Positions 11,659 through 25,384 of a stretch of 25,384 nt of DNA are shown here, one piece after another. Location: IMG/VR virus record IMGVR_UViG_2718218100_000015; one strand, 5' to 3'. Position 1 is the stretch's first letter. Each line of letters begins with the position of its first letter. This DNA is from a virus (lineage: Duplodnaviria > Heunggongvirae > Uroviricota > Caudoviricetes). The position numbers and the translations under genes are program-made. Below the pieces are notes generated by a model. The model searched no databases, was not told the origin of the DNA, and worked only from the letters and a program-made list of their open reading frames with translations.

Positions 11659-12840
11659 TTAACTCCTTTTTAGTCTTTCAAATATCAAATTACTGTACCA
11701 GTCCATCATAGACTTCCTTCCACTAAAATATTGAGCATGGTTATAAGTCCCCCTAATAGAATTTTTATCTACATGAGCCAACTGGATTTCAATCCAAGCA
11801 CTCTCAAAACCTTGCTCATGCAGGATTGTAGAAAGGGTATGACGAAAACCATGTCCAGTGACTTTTCCTCCATACCCAATACGCTTAATGGCTTGATTTA
11901 TACTCGCTTCGCTCATTGGCCTATTCGGATCGTTCCGCCCTGGAAAAACATAACGATAGTTCCCTGTCATGATCTTGAGTTCATTGAGTAAATCTACCGC
12001 TTGAGATGATAAGGGCACAAGATGTGGCCTACGCATTTTCATCCTTTCAGCAGGAATTTCCCAAATAGCGTTATCCAGATCAAATTCTTGCCATAATGCC
12101 GCGCGTAATTCGATGGTTCTCACACCCGTAATCATCAGTAATTTCGTGGCTATCTGGACAAGCTTACTCCCGGAGTAACCCTCTAAGGCACGTAGAAAAT
12201 CAGGTATCTCATCAGCTTTTAGGAATGGGAAATGATTGGATTGGTGTACTTCGAGAGCGCTGGAGAGCTCAGCCGCAGGATTGTACTCCGCCCTACCCGT
12301 TGCAATTGCGTAGCGAAACACTTCGGAGCAACGCTGCCGCACTTTGCGCATTTTCTCCAACGCACCACGTTTCTCAATTTTACGCAGAACGTTCAGCAGC
12401 TCTAGCGGTTTAATCTCTCCCACAGGCCTTGTTCCGACATAAGGAAAAATGTCGTTCTTAAACGCTTCCATGATGTCTGATGCATATCCCGCCGACCATT
12501 TAGCAGATTTAAGTTGATGCCACTCTCTGGCTATCTTTTCGAAGGCGTTCTCTGACTCTGTTTGCATAGCTAGCTTTTGCTCTTTTCGAACCTCACTAGG
12601 GTTCTTTCCTTCTGCCACAAGTTTTCGAGCTTCATCACGACGGGAACGAGCATCGGCAAGGGTGATCGTTGGGTAAACACCAAGCGAGATCATTTTGGGT
12701 TTGCCGGCATAGCGATAGCGGAACCGCCAACTCTTGCTTCCATTAGGTTCTATAAGTAATGACAACCCTAGCCCATCTCCAAATGTATAGGCTTTAGCTT
12801 CAGGCTTAGCGCGGCGAATCTGCATATCGTTTAAAGGCAT
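11659..12840 (-). CDS. int: P4-type tyrosine integrase (393 aa)
   Basis: ATG at 12838-12840 (MPLNDMQIRRAKPEAKAYTFGDG...); catalytic region HGFRHTLSTILHEQG ... IRGTYNH; lies 160 bp downstream of a tRNA-Thr 3' fragment in the same orientation. Confidence 0.9.
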   Translation of the reverse strand: MPLNDMQIRRAKPEAKAYTFGDGLGLSLLIEPNGSKSWRFRYRYAGKPKMISLGVYPTITLADARSRRDEARKLVAEGKNPSEVRKEQKLAMQTESENAFEKIAREWHQLKSAKWSAGYASDIMEAFKNDIFPYVGTRPVGEIKPLELLNVLRKIEKRGALEKMRKVRQRCSEVFRYAIATGRAEYNPAAELSSALEVHQSNHFPFLKADEIPDFLRALEGYSGSKLVQIATKLLMITGVRTIELRAALWQEFDLDNAIWEIPAERMKMRRPHLVPLSSQAVDLLNELKIMTGNYRYVFPGRNDPNRPMSEASINQAIKRIGYGGKVTGHGFRHTLSTILHEQGFESAWIEIQLAHVDKNSIRGTYNHAQYFSGRKSMMDWYSNLIFERLKRS

Positions 12841-13002
12841 GTGTATAGGAATCCAGACCGAACAGGAACATATACACAATCCTATACACATTCAGTACCG
12901 GATTCTACTGGATGGTTACGGACTACTATGGACTTAAAAGAATAAAAAATGTTATAAATCAGAGATTTTATGGACTAATACGGACGTTTGAGGAAGTTGA
13001 GA

Positions 13003-13048
13003 TGGTGCCGATAATAGGAGTCGAACCTACGACCTTCGCATTACGAAT
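13003..13048 (-). other. 3' fragment (about 46 nt) of tRNA-Thr(CGU), thrW-like; att-site remnant, 5' half absent
   Basis: Reverse complement reads ATTCGTAATGCGAAGGTCGTAGGTTCGACTCCTATTATCGGCACCA (anticodon loop through CCA end); sequence beyond 13048 does not continue as D-arm or acceptor stem. Confidence 0.75.
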
Positions 13049-13249
13049 TATAAGAATCCGCTTCTAATTCAAAGCATTACCCCATCAACACTGCGCTCAC
13101 ACGTCCCACCACATCAAAACATGTAAAGCCTTGCAAGCCATTGCGAGGCCTTATGTGTCTCAGTTTTGTCCCACCTTGTATTACGACTTGCATAGCCAAT
13201 GAAGATAAACGTGACGACAAACGGCGCAGCAGTCTTCTTTTCTTTCACG

Positions 13250-13795
13250 ACTTCTCCAGCATGCATACCTTTCTGCCATGACTGAAGTGAATGCCTGTTA
13301 TGAGCAAGGATTGGCCCAGATGAATCGCCCTGGACTGTTGCGATCGTGAAGCCATAGACTGGGCCGCAAGCACGGGAGGTTACGATAAAGCGACAGTGCA
13401 GGATGTCATGTTAGGAGCGATAGAAAAACGCTTTGGCGATAAAGTACCGGAACAGTCCATCCAGTGGCTGACAGATAACGGTTCAGCGTATAGAGCGCAT
13501 GAAACACGGCAGTTCGCCAGAGAGTTGAATCTGGAGCCCTGCACAACGGCAATCAGCAGTCCTCAGAGTAATGGAATTGCAGAAAGGTTCGTGAAAACGA
13601 TGAAGGAAGACTACATCGCGTTCATGCCGAAACCGAATGTAAGAACGGCATTGCATAATCTTGCAGTGGCGATCGAACATTACAATGAAAACCATCCGCA
13701 CAGTGCGTTGGGTTATCGCTCTCCGCGAGAATATCGACGTCAGCGGGTAACGTTAACTTAAGATACCCCCCCTGTCTGGAAATAAGGGGGCAAGA
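13250..13795 (+). mobile_element. IS2-group (IS3 family) insertion sequence remnant, right-end portion only
   Basis: Encodes a transposase C-terminus resembling IS2 OrfB; terminal sequence tgtctggaaataaggggg at about 13773-13792 resembles the IS2 right end; left boundary approximate. Confidence 0.6.
13321..13761 (+). pseudogene. IS2-like transposase OrfB, C-terminal fragment (DDE/rve domain tail)
   Basis: Frame reads [35 protein letters not shown]...[25 protein letters not shown]...[20 protein letters not shown]...[19 protein letters not shown]; upstream frame closed at 13321. Confidence 0.7.
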
Positions 13796-13802
13796 ACAAT
13801 GA

Positions 13803-14546
13803 TCAGATTCCCTGGTGAGTAAGAATTTTACTTTCTGAACTCCTCTGAGAGTATTGACTTGGAGAAACACCAAAATAACGTCTAAATACATAAGTAAAGT
13901 ATGAGACACTGGCATAACCACAGACCTTAGCTACTTTACTAATAGGATAACAACGAGTGCTGAGTAAATATTCAGCCATTTGCATCCTCTCATCAAGTAT
14001 GATCTTACTGAATGATACCCCCTCTTCTTTCAATTTCCTCTTTAGTAAACTTTCGCTGAGATATAATCTTGATGATATATCCTTAAGACGCCATGGTGCA
14101 GATAAATCCGTATGAATAATCGTTTTAACTTTAGCCCCTGTGCTTTTCAAACATCCAAACAGAAATACTCCAAATTGTTTTTCAGAAGAAAATGCAGAGA
14201 GACATGTAAAAGCAATAGACTCATCAAAAATTTCTATGTATTCAGCACAGTGATTAGCCCAACTAATTAATCCTTTAATTAAACTGAAGTCAGCAAAGTT
14301 TATTTTTAAATAAGATGGATATTCCCTACAATCAGAAATATCCCTTAAGTTATTAGCTTTCAAATAGCGACTAATAAACTCAGCGCCAAAATCCGCCACT
14401 ATCACTCTTTCAGGATATGTCAGGAAAAAATCTCTAGAGCTAGAGTCGACAAGTACAGATGAACCTCTCTCCAGAAACACACTCTCTTTTCCGAAATAAA
14501 CATCAAAGGACTCCAAAATCAATATAACTGAACATGTAGTTGCCAT
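13803..14546 (-). CDS. AraC-family transcriptional regulator (247 aa), AT-rich, Rns/AggR-like
   Basis: C-terminal HTH_AraC region LSESLLKRKLKEEGVSFSKIILDERMQMAEYLL...ISKVAKVCGYASVSYFTYVFRRYFGVSPSQY; low GC with a long AT-rich upstream region. Confidence 0.75.
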   Translation of the reverse strand: MATTCSVILILESFDVYFGKESVFLERGSSVLVDSSSRDFFLTYPERVIVADFGAEFISRYLKANNLRDISDCREYPSYLKINFADFSLIKGLISWANHCAEYIEIFDESIAFTCLSAFSSEKQFGVFLFGCLKSTGAKVKTIIHTDLSAPWRLKDISSRLYLSESLLKRKLKEEGVSFSKIILDERMQMAEYLLSTRCYPISKVAKVCGYASVSYFTYVFRRYFGVSPSQYSQRSSESKILTHQGI

Positions 14547-15128
14547 ATCATCCCCCCAATTTAACTGAAACCAGGATGAAGTATATGTATATAAAGTTCA
14601 CTTTGCCAAACTTCAGTATAAAAAACCACTAAAAATAGGGTGTGATAAAAAATACCGTAACAATAAAGCAAAGGATTATAAATTCCGTTACAGTTACAAA
14701 TGATACTCAAGAAACAATTCCTTAGGAAAAACTTATTTACAGCCAATAAGTAAGACACTTATATGATATCAAGTTTTCATAAAACATAACTAGGCTAAAT
14801 AGCTGCGCCTAATACCGCTACACTTTTGCCAGCCCATGTTTGCCTCCGGGTATTGACCCCTTCTCTACGCAACTTCAGTTCCCACCACCAACTTTGCGGC
14901 AGCTTTGTAGGATCAATGTCTAAAAGAATAATGGTGACCGATAAGAAAACGACTGAATAACTGCAGATTTTCGCTCAAAACCTTCCTGTCAGATCCATAG
15001 CGAATCAAGTGCTGAATGTCACAGTATCGAACAGAAAACAGTGACGATCTAACCCTTCAAGAATATTCTACGATTGTTCTGTTTAGGAAAAGCAAGACGG
15101 GAAGTCGGGAGATAAGTCATTGATAAAG

Positions 15129-15190
15129 TGGCGGAGAGAGGGGGATTTGAACCCCCGGTAGAGTTGCCCCTACTCCGGTTTTCGAGACCG
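15129..15190 (-). other. 3' fragment (about 62 nt) of tRNA-Ser(CGA), serU-like; att-site remnant, 5' part absent
   Basis: Reverse complement reads CGGTCTCGAAAACCGGAGTAGGGGCAACTCTACCGGGGGTTCAAATCCCCCTCTCTCCGCCA (anticodon loop, long variable arm, T-arm, CCA); upstream sequence does not continue as tRNA. Confidence 0.75.
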
Positions 15191-15273
15191 ACCCGATCAT
15201 CAAACGAAACATAAAATTAGCTCACATTATGAGGAAAGGTATCTTTTTGCGCTATGTAAATTCAAAGGGTTAG

Positions 15274-16200: not shown

Positions 16201-16755
16201 TCATTTATCTCCGGCCGGAAACTTCTTATACAGTGTCGATACACCAACATCATAGATGATCGCTACCTTCTGGCGAGGAATTCCTGCTGCAATTAATCGT
16301 CCGGCCTGCGCCCATTGTTCTGGTGTAAGTTTGGGACGACGTCCACCAATTCGTCCCTGTGCGCGAGCAGCTTCCAGTCCAGCTTTTGTTCGTTCAACAA
16401 TCAGTTCTCGTTCCATTTCAGCCAGGGCCCCCATCACATGAAAGAAAAAGCGCCCCATTGGGGTACTGGTATCAATAGCATCCGTCAGGCTGCGAAAATT
16501 AACGCCACGTTCGCGCAACTCCTCAACCAGAATGACCAGATGCCGCATACTGCGCCCCAGCCGATCCAGTTTCCAGACAACCAGAGTGTCACCTGCCGAT
16601 AATGTCCTGAGCAGTTTTTTCAGTCCCGGCCTTTCGGACTTTGTACCGCTTATCTTGTCTTCAAAAATCAGCTCGCATCCTGCACAGTTCAGCGCATTAC
16701 GTTGTAGATCTGTGTTCTGGTCATTTGTTGACACACGTACATAGCCAATAAGCAT
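16201..16755 (-). CDS. pin: Pin/Hin/Gin-family serine DNA invertase (184 aa)
   Basis: MLIGYVRVSTNDQNTDLQRNAL... with catalytic Ser in VRVST and a C-terminal HTH; very close to e14 Pin as recalled; adjacent to the invertible segment. Confidence 0.9.
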   Translation of the reverse strand: MLIGYVRVSTNDQNTDLQRNALNCAGCELIFEDKISGTKSERPGLKKLLRTLSAGDTLVVWKLDRLGRSMRHLVILVEELRERGVNFRSLTDAIDTSTPMGRFFFHVMGALAEMERELIVERTKAGLEAARAQGRIGGRRPKLTPEQWAQAGRLIAAGIPRQKVAIIYDVGVSTLYKKFPAGDK

Positions 16756-16821
16756 GGTAGATCTCCCTGACAAAAGCAGGAATGATGCCATTTGCTCGTT
16801 ATTTCTGCATTTTCATAAACG

Positions 16822-16852
16822 TTGGTTTGGGAGAAGGTGCTCCAGCTATTGG
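16822..16852. repeat. left crossover site (inverted repeat) of the Pin invertible segment
   Basis: ttggtttgggagaaggtgctccagctattgg is the inverted complement of 18574-18603 with one single-base indel; lies 67 bp upstream of the pin start. Confidence 0.6.
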
Positions 16853-17067
16853 CGTTCCGTTCTTCTGGCGTCCGCTGCAATGCCAAATACTGTAATCGAC
16901 AGCTGGTCCTGTATGGTGTTTTGAAGTTCAACGGCGCGAAATTCTCTGCCACTGATTATCCTGTGCTGGCGAAAGTGTTTCCTTCGCTGGTATTACCTGA
17001 AGCCGCGGTGATTTCATTCGTATCTGGGATGACGGGCGAGGTGCAGACGGTGGTCGCGAATTATTAA
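16822..17067 (+). pseudogene. alternative tail-fibre C-terminal variable module (silent orientation)
   Basis: Frame starting inside the left crossover site encodes ...KFNGAKFSATDYPVLAKVFPSLVLPEAAV..., typical of a tail-fibre tip; would be joined to the constant part after inversion. Confidence 0.4.
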
Positions 17068-17284
17068 GCTGGCAGGCAGCTACAAACTTTTCTCAGTTTG
17101 CCGGAATATAGGCGAAGGTGCGGGACACGCAATTAACTTTCATGATGGCATCGCCGGAAATCAGCCAGGATTTTCACGATTTAATTTCACCAGTAACTCT
17201 GTGGGTGATGGTGTGAATTTTGTTGCAGTCAGACGCGAATATTGCATTTAACTTTCTGGTGAGGCTAAATAATGAAACCTGTTT

Positions 17285-17793
17285 TTGATGAAAATGGCTG
17301 GCTACAGTGCCGGGCGATATGCGTTGTTTTATTATGATGCTGAAACATCTGAGTATACGGGCTGGTCTGATGAATATATTAATACTGGCGTAAGTATGCC
17401 GCCTGTTCCACTGGTATTGACCTGGCGAAAACATTCGGGAAGAGTGGCAGTATTTACAGGTAAGGATGGAGCCATGAAGAAGACCATCGCAATGAGACTG
17501 TTTACTCAATCGAAATGGCGCAGCTGTTACAGTGGATTATATCGGTGCCATCAAAGACGGTTATGTCACGATTTCACCGTTAACGCCATACGATAAATGG
17601 ATGGTGAGAAATGGTGACAGACACTGAGGCACAACACAGTGCCGCAGTAGACGCGGCAGAAGCACAGCGCCAATCACTGATTGATGCAGCAATGGCTTCC
17701 ATTAGTCTGATTCAGCTGAAGTTACAGCCGGACGGAACTGACTCAGGCAGAACAACCCGACTTAACGCCGTGCTGGATTACATTGACGCGTGA
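17285..17793 (+). pseudogene. tail fibre assembly (Tfa-like) gene, frameshifted
   Basis: N-terminal ...FYYDAETSEYTGWSDEYINTG... and C-terminal ...EAQHSAAVDAAEAQRQSLIDAAMASISLIQLKL...TTRLNAVLDYIDA lie in different frames; the expected ...APD(V/I)IW... tail is in yet another frame downstream. Confidence 0.5.
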
Positions 17794-17835
17794 CGGCAAC
17801 AGATACCAGCACGCGCCGGATGTCATCTGGCTGAA

Positions 17836-18247
17836 CTGCCGGAGCGTAGGCCATTCAATATCTGGCGCACCGGAAGTATCGACCAGCTCCAGTGCGTCCA
17901 GATAATCCAGCCACAATTATATTGCGTCAGTTCGTCACCTTTCAGACGACCAATAGCCGCTTTACGGGCCATTGCTTACTGTTCATGTATTCGTTGGCCT
18001 GGTTAATTAGTAGCTGTCTTTCTGATTCAGTAATTTCAATAAGCTCTTCATGCGTGGTGAATATCTGCCACGCAGGCAGCCATCATCTCCGGCAATACGG
18101 ATTTTCCTTGTGCGGTTCAGCCATAAACTCACTGATAATATTTGATTACTTCCTTAGCGTCTGATAAATCCCATCCCTCTGATTATATTTATCAATCATA
18201 TCACAGGAAAAAGCATTATGCCTTGCGCTATAAACATATTCGTCCAT
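17836..18247 (-). pseudogene. second, convergent Tfa-like gene (minus strand), degenerate
   Basis: Manual minus-strand translation gives MDEYVYSARHNAF... from an ATG at 18245-18247 and a C-terminal WLDYLDALELVDTSGAPDIEWP at 17836-17913, with frame breaks between. Confidence 0.3.
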
Positions 18248-18465
18248 ATAAATCACCCTGAATAAAATTACTCACCACAGCCCACCAACTGTAATTCATC
18301 GATACCGTGTCGCTGGTTGATGACGTTCTGTAAGCAGAATTAAAGCGTTAACGTTGGCCTTCTGCAGTCATCACGAACCTCGCCAGCGCCTAAAGGCGCA
18401 CCGCCATCACCAGAATGAGTAAGCATGGCGCAGTCCGCTTTTTGGGAAAGGATGCTGAATGTAAT

Positions 18466-19250
18466 TCATTGTGCGTCGATAATGTCGGCGTAACCGCACA
18501 CGACCATATTGCAGGATTTCCCGTTGAATTCACCATCATACCACTGGCAAAGAGGCATGCCGGACGACCCGCCCAATAGCTGGAGCCCTTCTCCCAAACC
18601 AAGGTTTTGAAGAGCCGTTTTCACCGTGCCGTCCGATTTGATATCGCCAAACGGATTCTTGCGGCTCAGGTATTCAACAGCAAACCCCGATCCCAGCAAT
18701 TCAACAAAACCGGGCAGATCACCATTATCAAGCACATCCCGTTGCGTTTTATCACTTACAAACTGGGCCAGAGCTGCAGCAATAAAGCTGGCCTGCCGAA
18801 TAACCTTATTGACTTGCGCACTGGATGCTTTCCCTGCTGTAAATCCGGATATAAGCGCAGGCAACGCTTCCCATTCCTCCTGCGACATAACATTGGCATT
18901 TCGATCAGTTGCAAACGCTTTAAAGTCATTTTTCGCCATCAGAGTAATACTCCCCATGCCCCTACATCAAAACCACTGATGAATTCGTTATCCATATCAA
19001 AACCAAAAAATTTAGAGCCTTCCGATGGAGTTTCCACCGAAGGTGTTTCAATGCCCCCCGCCCATACCCCGGCGGCTTTTACTGTTAGATACCCCTGTTT
19101 AATTGCCGCAATTAACTCACGCGATACATCTGAAATATCAGTATCAGGAAAGACCCAGACCGATATCGTCATGTCCTGGTTATCGATGTTGGCGATCCGA
19201 CGCATCTGCTCACGGTCAAAGTTAACCATCTGTGCGGCGATGTTTTTCAT
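18466..19250 (-). pseudogene. tail-fibre constant-region fragment fused to the first 21 codons of lambda-type P; internal frame break near 18939-18957
   Basis: ORF 18939-19250 starts MKNIAAQMVNFDREQMRRIAN (lambda P N-terminus) then switches to unrelated sequence; ORF 18466-18957 reads through the right crossover site. Confidence 0.45.
18574..18603. repeat. right crossover site (inverted repeat) of the Pin invertible segment
   Basis: ccaatagctggagcccttctcccaaaccaa; inverted copy of 16822-16852; lies inside the tail-fibre constant-region reading frame (...[12 protein letters not shown]...). Confidence 0.6.
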
Positions 19251-20911: not shown

Positions 20912-21628
<717 letters not shown>

Positions 21629-21755: not shown

Positions 21756-22612
21756 ATGAAGAAAGCAGCAATTTTAATTGATGCGGGTTTTTTCATGCAG
21801 CGTGTTCATGCTACGCATCGTAAACACTTCGCCGAGCATGAACTGACTGTGCAATGCATAATGAAAGTAATATGGTCAATGGTTCTTTCCCATCTTAATG
21901 GAAAACGTCAATCACAAGAACGTAGGGAACCGCTTGAGCTTTATAGAATTTACTTCTATGACTGTCCACCACTCGACATTCAAACACGCCTTCCACTTCC
22001 TGAGCCTGGCAATAAGACGCCTGGTCGCAAGAATTTCAAACTCGAAAAATCATATATTCTGAGAACGGAGCTGCATGAAGAGTTAAGAAAAACTCGAAAA
22101 ACAGCCTTAAGATTAGGGAATCTTGTTGATAATAAGCGATGGCAACTAACTACATTCTCCCTTGATGCTCTGATGAAAGGAACGAAAAAATGGGATGAAC
22201 TGACAAATGATGTTTTTACTATGACATCAAACAAAAACAAGTTGATATCAAGCTAGGGATGGATATCACGACTTTAGCTTATGAAAAACTTGTTGATGTA
22301 ATTGTCCTTGTTGCTGGGGACTCAGACTTTGTGCCTGCCGCCAAACACGCCAGAATTAAAGGTATTGATTTTATTCTTGATCCACTAAGACAGAATGTTA
22401 CCCCATCACTGTCAGAGCACATTGATGGAGTTCAGTCATACAGCTTGATATCAGGACTTGCCGATGCTTTACATGTTGAGCCAGACCCGGCACCTGACTG
22501 GTGGGAAGATCGAAAAAAAGGCAAGCCTAGAGGAAAAAACAATAGCGGTAAACGCAGGTATGGAAACACTCAAGCTGAGTCTGCAAAGAAACATCAAAGA
22601 AATAAACGATAA
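21756..22612 (+). pseudogene. NYN/LabA-like (PIN-fold) domain protein in the position of lambda rexAB; split into 166-aa and 117-aa ORFs by a frameshift near a T5 run
   Basis: ORF1 begins MKKAAILIDAGFF; the second frame reads ...KQVDIKLGMDITTLAYEKLVDVIVLVAGDSDFVPAAKHARIKGIDFIL; the frames overlap across 22211-22256 with T5 at 22213-22217. Confidence 0.55.
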
Positions 22613-22733
22613 TCCCATCAACCCGGCCACCGAGCCGGGTTTTCTTTGCCTCTCGATCGCCCCACCTAAAAACACATAATGAACCGCCCCGGAAATCCTG
22701 GAGACTAAACTCCCTGAGAAAGAGGTAAACAGG

Positions 22734-23060
22734 ATGACTAAAAATACTCGTTTTTCCCCCGAAGTCCGTCAGCGGGCGATTCGTATGGTTCTGGAAAGTC
22801 AGGATGAATATGACTCACAGTGGGCGGCAATTTGTTCCATTGCCCCAAAGATTGGCTGTACGCCGGAGACTCTGCGTGTCTGGGTTCGCCAGCATGAGCG
22901 GGATACCGGGGGCGGTGATGGTGGGCTCACCAGCGCTGAACGTCAGCGTCTGAAAGAGCTGGAACGTGAAAATCGTGAACTGCGCCGCAGTAACGATATC
23001 CTTCGCCAGGCTTCCGCTTATTTTGCGAAGGCGGAGTTCGACCGCCTCTGGAAAAAATGA
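22734..23060 (+). CDS. IS629 transposase OrfA (108 aa)
   Basis: [60 protein letters not shown]... with HTH and leucine-zipper-like C-terminus. Confidence 0.85.
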
Positions 23061-23947
23061 TGCCACTGCTGGATAAGCTGCGTGAGCAGTACGGGGTCGG
23101 ACCGGTATGCAGCGAACTGCATATTGCCCCGTCAACGTATTACCATTGTCAGCAACAGCGACATCATCCGGATAAACGCAGTGCCCGTGCGCAGCACGAC
23201 GACTGGCTGAAGAGAGAGATACAGCGCGTATACGATGAAAATCATCAGGTGTACGGTGTGCGTAAAGTCTGGCGTCAGTTGTTACGGGAAGGAATCAGGG
23301 TGGCCAGATGTACAGTGGCACGTCTCATGGCGGTTATGGGACTTGCCGGTGTTCTCCGGGGTAAAAAGGTCCGTACGACCATCAGCCGGAAAGCCGTTGC
23401 CGCAGGCGACCGCGTAAACCGTCAGTTCGTGGCAGAACGACCTGACCAGCTGTGGGTGGCTGATTTTACTTACGTCAGCACATGGCAGGGCTTCGTCTAT
23501 GTGGCGTTTATCATTGATGTGTTTGCCGGATACATCGTGGGGTGGCGGGTCTCATCGTCTATGGAAACGACATTCGTGCTGGATGCGCTGGAGCAGGCGT
23601 TGTGGGCCCGTCGTCCGTCTGGCACCATCCATCACAGCGATAAAGGCTCTCAGTATGTGTCACTGGCCTATACGGAGCGACTAAAAGAAGCCGGATTACT
23701 GGCATCAACAGGGAGTACAGGCGACTCGTATGACAACGCGATGGCTGAGAGCATCAATGGTCTTTACAAAGCGGAGGTAATACACCGTAAGAGCTGGAAA
23801 AACCGTGCAGAAGTGGAACTGGCCACACTAACGTGGGTGGACTGGTATAACAATCGACGATTGCTGGGAAGGCTGGGCCATACTCCTCCGGCAGAAGCAG
23901 AAAAAGCTTATTATGCTTCCATCGGAAACGATGATCTGGCAGCCTGA
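23057..23947 (+). CDS. IS629 transposase OrfB (DDE integrase-like catalytic domain), expressed as OrfAB by -1 frameshift
   Basis: ...[31 protein letters not shown]...[11 protein letters not shown]...[19 protein letters not shown]... shows the D, D, E catalytic spacing; overlaps orfA in the -1 frame. Confidence 0.85.
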
Positions 23948-24115
23948 GTTCACAGATAAAACACTCTCCAGGAAACCCGGGGCGGTTCATAACCAATTGT
24001 ATTTATTTTAAAATTAATAGGTGCAACTCACTAAACAACGCAATTCTGATCTCTCGATCACCTCCCAAGCCACACAACCCTGCAAAAAATAAATCTATAT
24101 AAAAAACATACAGAT

Positions 24116-24178
24116 AACCATCTGCGGTGATAAATTATCTCTGGCGGTGTTGACACAAATACCACTAGCGGTGATACT
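24116..24178 (+). promoter_or_regulatory. OL3-OL2-OL1 operators and pL promoter
   Basis: aaccatctgcggtgata, tatctctggcggtgttg, taccactagcggtgata; -35 ttgaca at 24150-24155 and -10 gatact at 24173-24178. Confidence 0.8.
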
Positions 24179-24217: not shown

Positions 24218-24248
24218 TGCTCTTAAAAATTAAGCCCTGAAGAAGGGC
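24218..24248 (+). promoter_or_regulatory. nutL (boxA tgctcttaa, boxB gccctgaagaagggc)
   Basis: boxA-like 24218-24226 and boxB hairpin 24234-24248 downstream of pL. Confidence 0.7.
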
Positions 24249-24405
24249 AGCATTCAAAGCAGAAGGCTTTGGTGTGTGTGATACGAAACGAAGCATTGGC
24301 CGGAAGTGCGAATCCGGATTAGCAGCCAATGTGCCATTGCGGGGTGTTTTCGTTCAGGACTACGACTCCCACACACAACCAAAGCTAACTAACAGGAGAA
24401 TCCAG

Positions 24406-24465
24406 ATGGATGCACAAACACGCCGCCGCGAACGTCGCGCAGAGAAACAGGCTCAATGGAAAGCA
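24406..24465 (+). pseudogene. N: lambda-type antiterminator N, first 20 codons only
   Basis: [20 protein letters not shown] then the frame reads into unrelated sequence and stops at 24519. Confidence 0.8.
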
Positions 24466-25384
24466 GATCGGATTCTGGCTTCAACATTTCGCAGGAATGC
24501 AACTAAGAGACATTACTGAATCAAAAATTTATTCAGCAATGCAGAAAATGACGAACCGGCGTCATGAGGAAAACTGGAAACTCAGGGCAGAAGCATGCAG
24601 AAAAAAAGGGAAACCTGTTCCAGAATACACGCCAAAACCAGCGTCCGTTGCAACGAAGGCTACGCATCTTTCATTTATAAAGGCCCTGCTAAGAGCCGCA
24701 GAGCGTGAATGGAAAATGCTCGATAAGGCACCAATTATTAAAGTGCCTCAACCAAAGAATAAACGGATCCGCTGGCTGGAGCCCCATGAAGCACAAAGGC
24801 TGATTGATGAATGTCCGGAGCCATTAAAGTCTGTTGTTGAATTTGCACTGGCAACAGGCTTAAGACGCTCGAACATCATCAACCTTGAATGGCAACAAAT
24901 AGATATGCAGCGCCGGGTGGCATGGATAAACCCGGAAGAGAGTAAATCAAACCGCGCAATTGGCGTTGCGCTGAATGATACTGCATGTCGCGTATTGAAA
25001 AAACAAATCGGTAATCATCACCGTTGGGTATTTGTGTACAAGGAAAGCTGTACCAAACCAGACGGAACGAAAGCGCCAACAGTAAGGAAGATGCGGTATG
25101 ACGCAAACACAGCCTGGAAAGCGGCGCTGAGACGGGCTGGTATTGATGATTTCAGATTTCACGACTTGAGACACACCTGGGCAAGTTGGCTGGTTCAAGC
25201 CGGAGTCCCGTTGTCAGTGTTACAGGAAATGGGAGGCTGGGAGTCTATCGAAATGGTTCGTCGATATGCTCACCTTGCACCTAATCACCTTACCGAACAC
25301 GCACGGCAAATAGACTCGATCCTGAACCCATCGGTCCCAAATTTGTCCCAGTCAAAAAATAAGGAAGGTACTAATGATGTGTAA
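24466..25384 (+). pseudogene. int: 5'-truncated lambdoid tyrosine integrase (arm-binding N-terminus missing)
   Basis: From [22 protein letters not shown]... to the end; catalytic motifs RxxR...[11 protein letters not shown]...VRRYAHL present; the ORF-track start at 24410 is an alternate frame of N'. Confidence 0.8.

Follow-up and report, generated by a model that had tools for sequence, protein, structure and literature searches.

The stretch of DNA analysed here (the window, 25,384 nucleotides) is, judged by its sequence, the thrW prophage island of E. coli O157:H7, in which a P4-like prophage, Sp2, is followed by the lambda-like prophage Sp1 (alias CP-933H). Its identity, its position at thrW beside proA and its gene order all match Sp1/CP-933H, and in strain Sakai the locus adjoins thrW-proA and is annotated 'prophage Sp1, lambda-like phage', in tandem with the P4-like Sp2. 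The 3' end of thrW occurs three times, as a degenerate copy at 121-142, as an exact partial copy of 46-47 nt (the distal att in Table 1) and in the tRNA gene, which lies 14 nt past the window end; with these three copies the window takes in the complete tandem island of Sp2 and Sp1. The P4-like integrase gene of Sp2 (11659-12891, minus strand) is intact in the window and is broken by IS1203 in TW14359.

The early-left control region of Sp1 is of the lambda type. The hexamers of pL are those of lambda, oL2 and oL3 are identical to their lambda counterparts, and oL1 has a single G>A change which is common to phage ev099. In nutL, boxB (GCCCTGAAGAAGGGC, 24234-24248) is identical to lambda, and the first base of boxA (TGCTCTTAA, 24218-24226) is changed from C to T, as it is in ev099. 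Because ev099 has both of them, the oL1 and boxA differences are taken as natural variants and not as decay. Overall, the leader is 92% identical to lambda (over 480 nt) and 96.9% identical to ev099. The Shine-Dalgarno sequence of N, identical to that of lambda, precedes the N ATG at 24406 by 6 nt and a second ATG, at 24410 in the +1 frame, by 10 nt. The repressor which controls pL is full length, and its accession (WP_001274756.1) is the same in the Sp1 prophage of TW14359 and in the intact prophage QA-1986 630 described below. Since 232 of the 236 residues of cI are those of lambda and oL differs at only one base, Sp1 strains should be immune to lambda-immunity phages. No terminator-like site on the + strand was seen in a scan from pL to the window end.

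Table 1. Features of prophage Sp1 in the window, including those at and around the N-int junction (coordinates are positions in the window).
Feature	Coordinates	Strand	Basis
Distal att of Sp1, 46-47 nt copy of the thrW 3' end	13003..13048	+	exact match to the thrW 3' end beyond the window in TW14359
cI repressor gene, controls pL	20915..21628	+	232/236 aa identical to lambda cI (98%), full length
IS629/IS1203 between the NYN gene and pL	22680..23989	+	TAA target duplication, 22677-22679 and 23990-23992
Operators oL3, oL2, oL1	24116-24132, 24136-24152, 24160-24176	+	alignment to annotated lambda operators
pL promoter, TTGACA + 17-nt spacer + GATACT	24150..24178	+	promoter scan (10/12); hexamers as in lambda pL
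nutL	24218..24248	+	aligned to lambda nutL
N Shine-Dalgarno, AGGAGA	24394..24399	+	read from the sequence; identical to lambda
N remnant, codons 1-20 and first base of codon 21 (arginine-rich boxB-binding motif only)	24406..24466	+	identity to relatives
N' ORF, 37 codons (20 of N, 17 out of frame), stop TAA at 24517-24519	24406..24519	+	translation; ORF list
324-aa ORF in the integrase frame	24410..25384	+	ORF list; translation; equals Sakai ECs_0271
Deletion junction, 1 nt (G) overlap of the parents	24466..24467	.	comparison with the parents and QA-1986 630
Integrase remnant, I83-V387 of a 387-aa thrW-specific tyrosine integrase, and stop	24467..25384	+	nucleotide identity, Pfam

In the initial annotation N had been described as lambda-like for 20 codons and then as passing, out of frame, into an integrase gene, with the suggestion that alignment to lambda and lambdoid integrases would map the breakpoint. 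For this alignment the 40 nt flanking 24466 on either side were compared to five relatives with an N gene and to three integrase genes that are intact. In the five N carriers (lambda, ev099, phi458, the O55:H7 CB9615 prophage and Z1323MEC0002) the 40 nt leading up to 24466 are identical to the window, and all five are wholly divergent from 24467. The three intact integrase genes (SfV, phi458 and O157:H7 MB9-1) are unrelated to the window before 24466, and from 24466 on have at most one mismatch in 40 nt. This places the breakpoint at 24466 and bears out the description to the base, N extending to 24466 and the integrase continuing in the +1 frame relative to N. The junction reads ...GGAAAGCAG, immediately followed by ATCGGATTC..., and only the G at 24466 is common to both parents. 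A single-base overlap indicates an illegitimate deletion and not a homology-driven one. Microhomology at AAAGC, a pentamer found near both breakpoints, was considered and rejected; a crossover there would yield AAAGCCGGATCGG, unlike the window, and the real overlap is one base.

The N remnant up to the junction is identical in lambda, ev099, phi458, CB9615 and QA-1986 630. Its residues 1-20 are those of lambda N, and a match to Pfam N36 (PF11438) covers residues 2-21 (E = 3.8e-10). In lambda N the NusA-binding region lies at about residues 34-47 and the RNA-polymerase-binding C-terminus at about 73-107. The boxB-binding arginine-rich motif of the antiterminator (residues about 1-22) is present in the remnant. 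The NusA- and RNA-polymerase-binding regions are missing from N', as N ends at codon 20 and the 17 further residues are out-of-frame integrase DNA. The intact relative QA-1986 630 has N at its full length of 107 aa.

On the other side of the junction, the integrase frame is open upstream as far as the ATG at 24410, 4 nt after the N ATG, a detail missed in the initial annotation. The 19 leading residues of the resulting ORF are N DNA read out of frame, and its stop codon ends on the last base of the window. The remnant is identical at 919 of 919 nt to the integrase gene of QA-1986 630 and is 98.6-99.7% identical to those of SfV, phi458 and MB9-1. Compared to the intact alleles there is no frameshift, stop codon or amino-acid change, and the few differences are all synonymous. 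So unchanged a remnant would fit a recent deletion, and the synonymous differences may predate the event. The catalytic domain is whole; Phage_integrase (PF00589) is matched with E = 2.3e-47 over model positions 1-171 of 172, and R215, H314, R317, W340 and Y349 align to the catalytic residues of HP1 integrase and are invariant in the family alignment.

The deleted part of the protein, residues 1-82, includes the arm-binding domain; in a model of the full-length protein, residues 3-51 are folded as three strands plus a long helix, as would be expected of such a domain. A weak, sub-threshold match to DUF6538 covers residues 3-44 of the full-length SfV Int. In Salmonella, Citrobacter, Edwardsiella, Serratia, Pectobacterium and further genera the full-length homologues have about 387 aa and a strongly conserved N-terminus, and it is this conserved part which is missing from the remnant. 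The model was obtained with AlphaFold for a full-length homologue from a 26-sequence alignment, with a mean pLDDT of 59 and a pTM of 0.35. Residues 1-160 were used (block pLDDT 71-88), the catalytic domain being poorly predicted, with pLDDT <50 from residue 291 on. Four helices, at 59-69, 76-90, 100-129 and 143-164, make up the presumed core-binding domain (block pLDDT 74-88). In a fold search full-length lambda Int structures came top, with TM-scores of only about 0.2. By Pfam, no core-binding-domain family was found in the N-terminal 185 residues or in the 103 residues retained after the junction. A PDB sequence search with full-length SfV Int aligned the catalytic domain only, and nothing over the breakpoint region. 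BLASTP of SfV Int against lambda Int gave 25% identity over 48 aa only.

Residue 83, at the breakpoint, sits inside the second helix (76-90) of the predicted four-helix region (59-164). On this model the deletion took, besides the arm-binding domain, the first helix and half of the second in the presumed core-binding domain. The initial annotation had the loss extend up to the core-binding domain; loss of the arm-binding domain agrees with that, whereas the breakpoint falls inside the predicted core-binding domain and not at its edge. The clipping of this domain, as modelled, makes a properly folded Int' product less likely. There is no excisionase gene beside int in the window, and nothing lies between N' and int'. 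In QA-1986 630, SfV and MB9-1 a HTH/xis-like gene overlaps the start of int.

Whether the abutment of N and int is a scar or an ancestral arrangement was decided by a relative with the interval in place. QA-1986 630 (NZ_CP101920.1, 3.93-3.94 Mb) is an intact lambdoid prophage at thrW, with a 107-aa N and a 387-aa Int. Its cI and Cro proteins are identical to those of Sp1 (same accessions), and it has the same frameshifted and split NYN gene in the rex position. It occupies the same integration site, and relative to the window its pL-N leader is identical at 478 of 479 nt (99.8%) and its int at 919 of 919 (100%). The late genes and the full early-left interval are kept in QA-1986 630, where the window has the junction. 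Its breakpoints are 5,339 bp apart, and the interval between them comprises the rest of N, sieB, a DUF2528 gene, cIII, kil, gam, bet, exo, several small ORFs, the HTH/xis-like gene and int codons 1-82. The same general layout from N to int is found in phage phi458, with 7,429 bp between the equivalent points. The thrW prophage of O55:H7 CB9615 was also considered as an ancestor and was rejected, because its integrase shares no more than 68% identity, over part of the gene, and because it has a different cI.

We therefore read the scar as a single illegitimate deletion of about 5.3 kb within Sp1, joining N codon 20 to int codon 83, and put the probability of this at roughly 0.93. QA-1986 630 is a close relative and not a proven direct ancestor, so that the precise size of the event, and its having taken place in one step, are inferred. 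The initial annotation had already favoured deletion over an ancestral arrangement, and the same flanks with full N and Int 5,339 bp apart in QA-1986 630 support it. A check for intact relatives having the N-int arrangement of the window with a full-length integrase turned up none; what it found was QA-1986 630 and the homologues of about 387 aa. The predicted loss of the recombination and early-left genes, of xis and of the arm-binding domain was likewise supported by the gam, bet, exo, sieB, cIII, kil, xis-like gene and int codons 1-82 held in the QA-1986 630 interval.

The deletion could instead have spanned two tandem thrW prophages, fusing the N gene of a distal lambda-like prophage to the int gene of a proximal Sf-like one. 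Tandem prophages do exist at thrW, as Sp1 and Sp2, and O157:H7 MB9-1 has an Sf-like prophage there. Moreover, ev099, which among sequenced free phages comes closest in the cI-N region and the b-region, has an integrase of the lambda type and not of the Sf type. QA-1986 630, however, is a single thrW prophage with exactly this immunity region and integrase, and at the distal end of Sp1 (13049-13170) an Sf-type att arm is joined to an ev099-like b-region, as expected of one mosaic phage. The two-prophage origin needs extra events besides, and we consider it highly improbable. A deletion internal to Sp1 is retained in what follows. The Sp1 ancestor looks like an ev099-like phage in which the int/att module was swapped to the Sf type, because the b-region is ev099-like and the ev099 integrase is lambda-type. 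Beside the distal att, the segment at 13325-15191, with its AraC-family regulator and transposase fragments, shares 99% identity with the ev099 b-region.

Many O157:H7 chromosomes of E. coli match 1,435 nt round the junction at 100%, and the junction region is unchanged in Sakai, TW14359, EC4115 and over 200 more. Of 5,426 complete E. coli genomes, 214 have the junction at 100% identity, as judged with a 351-nt probe centred on it and full coverage of the probe. Those listed do not differ at all across the junction, and each carrier inspected among them was either O157:H7 or came from a source typical of O157. We give no credence to an artefact of assembly or sequencing, or to a chance resemblance: the former is excluded by the identical junction in 214 complete genomes, assembled independently in many laboratories, and flanks which match the parents over 479 and 919 nt at 99.8-100% are far beyond chance.

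The Sp1/CP-933H scar is already known, both from public pseudogene annotation and from its published functional consequences. In Sakai, ECs_0271 (the 'intD' pseudogene) is exactly the 324-aa ORF, and ECs_0272 ('phage early gene regulator') is an 81-aa ORF containing the N' remnant; PGAP tags the integrase remnant as a pseudogene, 'incomplete; missing N-terminus'. The present analysis contributes the exact breakpoint, an almost identical intact counterpart, which gives the size and content of the deletion, and the predicted clipping of the core-binding domain. Beyond such bookkeeping the importance is small. The scar does provide a base-resolved case of a lambdoid prophage becoming fixed in place by one illegitimate deletion, which takes away xis, the arm-binding domain of Int and the early-left operon and spares the repressor, pL and both att sites.

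Sp1 belongs to the lineage-specific prophages of O157:H7, and its genes from N' to the tail fibre vary by lineage; in a 2007 comparative study ECs0272-ECs0280 were present in lineages I and I/II and absent in lineage II (PMC1890555). With these genes found in lineages I and I/II and not in II (PMC1890555), the junction is a convenient lineage marker. One O157:H7 strain, MB9-1 (NZ_CP040107.1, 4.456-4.469 Mb), is without the Sp1 junction and has at thrW an SfV-like prophage whose integrase is full length and shares 99.7% identity with the remnant. Its intact Sf-like thrW prophage fits the published lack of ECs0272-ECs0280 in lineage II (PMC1890555).

Several other rearrangements were observed in the island. 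The IS629/IS1203 copy, annotated IS1203 in TW14359 and absent from Sakai, is no part of the junction and ends 160 bp before the -35 hexamer of pL. Its site is polymorphic in O157:H7, and only five complete genomes match the full configuration of the window. Sakai is without the IS and the adjacent 576 bp (window 22104-23991), and TW14359 keeps the IS and is without 22111-22667, a pattern which looks like that of IS-associated adjacent deletions. The NYN-domain gene (21756-22612) lies downstream of cI, in the position of rexAB in lambda. Compared to the 285-aa gene of ev099, it has a frameshift near 22213-22218 which splits it into ORFs of 166 aa and 117 aa; the same split is annotated in QA-1986 630. 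A tail-fibre segment (16812-18563) beside a pinE-type invertase gene (16201-16791) is inverted relative to both Sakai and TW14359, and appears to be a Pin-type invertible region caught in the other orientation. There is a second large deletion in Sp1, at about 18950-19250, where a remnant of replication gene P abuts a tail-fibre gene; the nin region, Q, the lysis and head genes and most of the tail genes are missing. Gene O is annotated with a frameshift in TW14359 and Sakai.

From these observations a sequence of events can be reconstructed. The ancestor was a lambdoid phage combining lambda-type immunity (cI, cro, oL/pL, nutL and N) with an SfV-type Int/Xis module directed to thrW. One deletion of about 5.3 kb, with a 1 nt overlap, then removed N codons 21-107, the early-left operon, the xis-like gene and int codons 1-82. 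N' would be unable to antiterminate, since only the boxB-binding arginine-rich motif is left and the NusA and RNA-polymerase regions are gone. During lysogeny pL would be repressed by the intact, SOS-cleavable, lambda-type cI, and on SOS induction transcription from pL would run through nutL and N' straight into int'. Read-through into int' would be expected because the normal terminators downstream of N were deleted with the interval. It is plausible, then, that pL still transcribes int', as the initial annotation supposed; pL, oL1-3 and nutL are all intact, cI is 98% lambda cI, and the early genes left in Sp1 respond to mitomycin C (PMC2669165). Translation of Int' could start either at the +1-frame ATG at 24410, behind the N ribosome-binding site, or at the ATG at 24497.

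Both att copies of Sp1 are present, as a direct repeat of 46-47 nt at the distal att and at thrW just beyond the window end, and the sequence beside the distal copy (13049-13170) matches the SfV attP arm. Despite the intact att sites Sp1 should be incapable of excising itself, because Int' is without arm binding and there is no Xis, so that recombination of attL with attR could not be assembled. The initial annotation had considered the prophage locked in place. This is consistent with published work on Sakai by Asadulghani et al. (2009), in which Sp1 was scored as defective in integration and absent in excision, and no circularization was observed with or without mitomycin C (PMC2669165). The residual early genes of Sp1 were induced by mitomycin C in that strain (PMC2669165). 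Gene-level expression data for ECs0271/ECs0272 were not found in the supplements of the 2009 paper or in the literature.

The simplest reading of int' is a non-functional pseudogene. A functional remnant can be imagined, in which an SOS-inducible arm-less integrase (from ATG 24410 or 24497), or the 37-aa N' as a boxB-binding peptide, serves as an exclusion factor; its targets may be incoming phages which integrate at thrW or have lambda-type N, or thrW core sites. Int' would then poison the Int tetramers of Sf-type thrW phages, or N' would titrate the boxB of lambda-N-type phages, and the remnant would be a domesticated defence or exclusion factor and not junk. The 324-aa ORF is indeed open behind the N ribosome-binding site, but an open +1 frame over 17 codons is near chance expectation. 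The catalytic domain is whole, and its amino acids are those of the intact alleles; the synonymous differences may, however, predate the deletion, recency explains the unchanged protein, and conservation within O157:H7 is uninformative as these strains are clonal. On the predicted structure, the core-binding domain is clipped. An intact pL and mitomycin C-induced Sp1 early genes (PMC2669165) would supply expression, and N' residues 2-21 match Pfam N36, a model of the N-terminal 36-mer of N. Against this, cI of Sp1 should already confer immunity to lambda-immunity phages, and neither expression nor phenotype data were found in the literature. We regard such a co-opted role as highly improbable, and keep to the pseudogene.

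Comparison with known systems places the two halves of the scar separately. The Sakai Sp1 prophage (the CP-933H / O-island 8 region of EDL933) is the same locus, with a junction region 100% identical to the window. The junction is no different in the two, whereas IS629/IS1203 and a longer NYN-gene remnant upstream of pL are present in the window and lost in Sakai. For early-left control the reference is lambda itself, with which Sp1 has in common the promoter hexamers, the three operators, nutL boxB, the ribosome-binding site and N codons 1-20, in addition to a cI which is 98% identical. Sp1 differs in that N is cut after codon 20, all the genes downstream of N in lambda are gone, and the NYN gene replaces rexAB.

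For the integrase, the 'IntD/HK97/phage 21 type' suggested by the initial annotation is only approximate, though intD is indeed the label in Sakai; the nearest named phage integrases are the thrW-specific ones of SfV, SfII, SfIV and SfI and of phage phi458, which are 98.5-99.5% identical in nucleotide sequence over the retained 919-926 nt. The att core of these phages is the thrW 3' end, as in Sp1. Their integrases are full length (387 aa) with xis adjacent, whereas Sp1 is without residues 1-82 and without xis. Truncations of lambda Int which are without the amino-terminal arm-binding domain are known from biochemical work. In terms of the domain organization of lambda Int (PMC4880445), the Sp1 remnant resembles them in that the catalytic domain is kept and the arm-binding domain is gone, and by analogy it should form no arm-bridged excision complex. 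Compared to the lambda truncations, the Sp1 remnant is also short of part of the predicted core-binding domain and, if started at 24410, would have 19 unrelated residues at its N-terminus.
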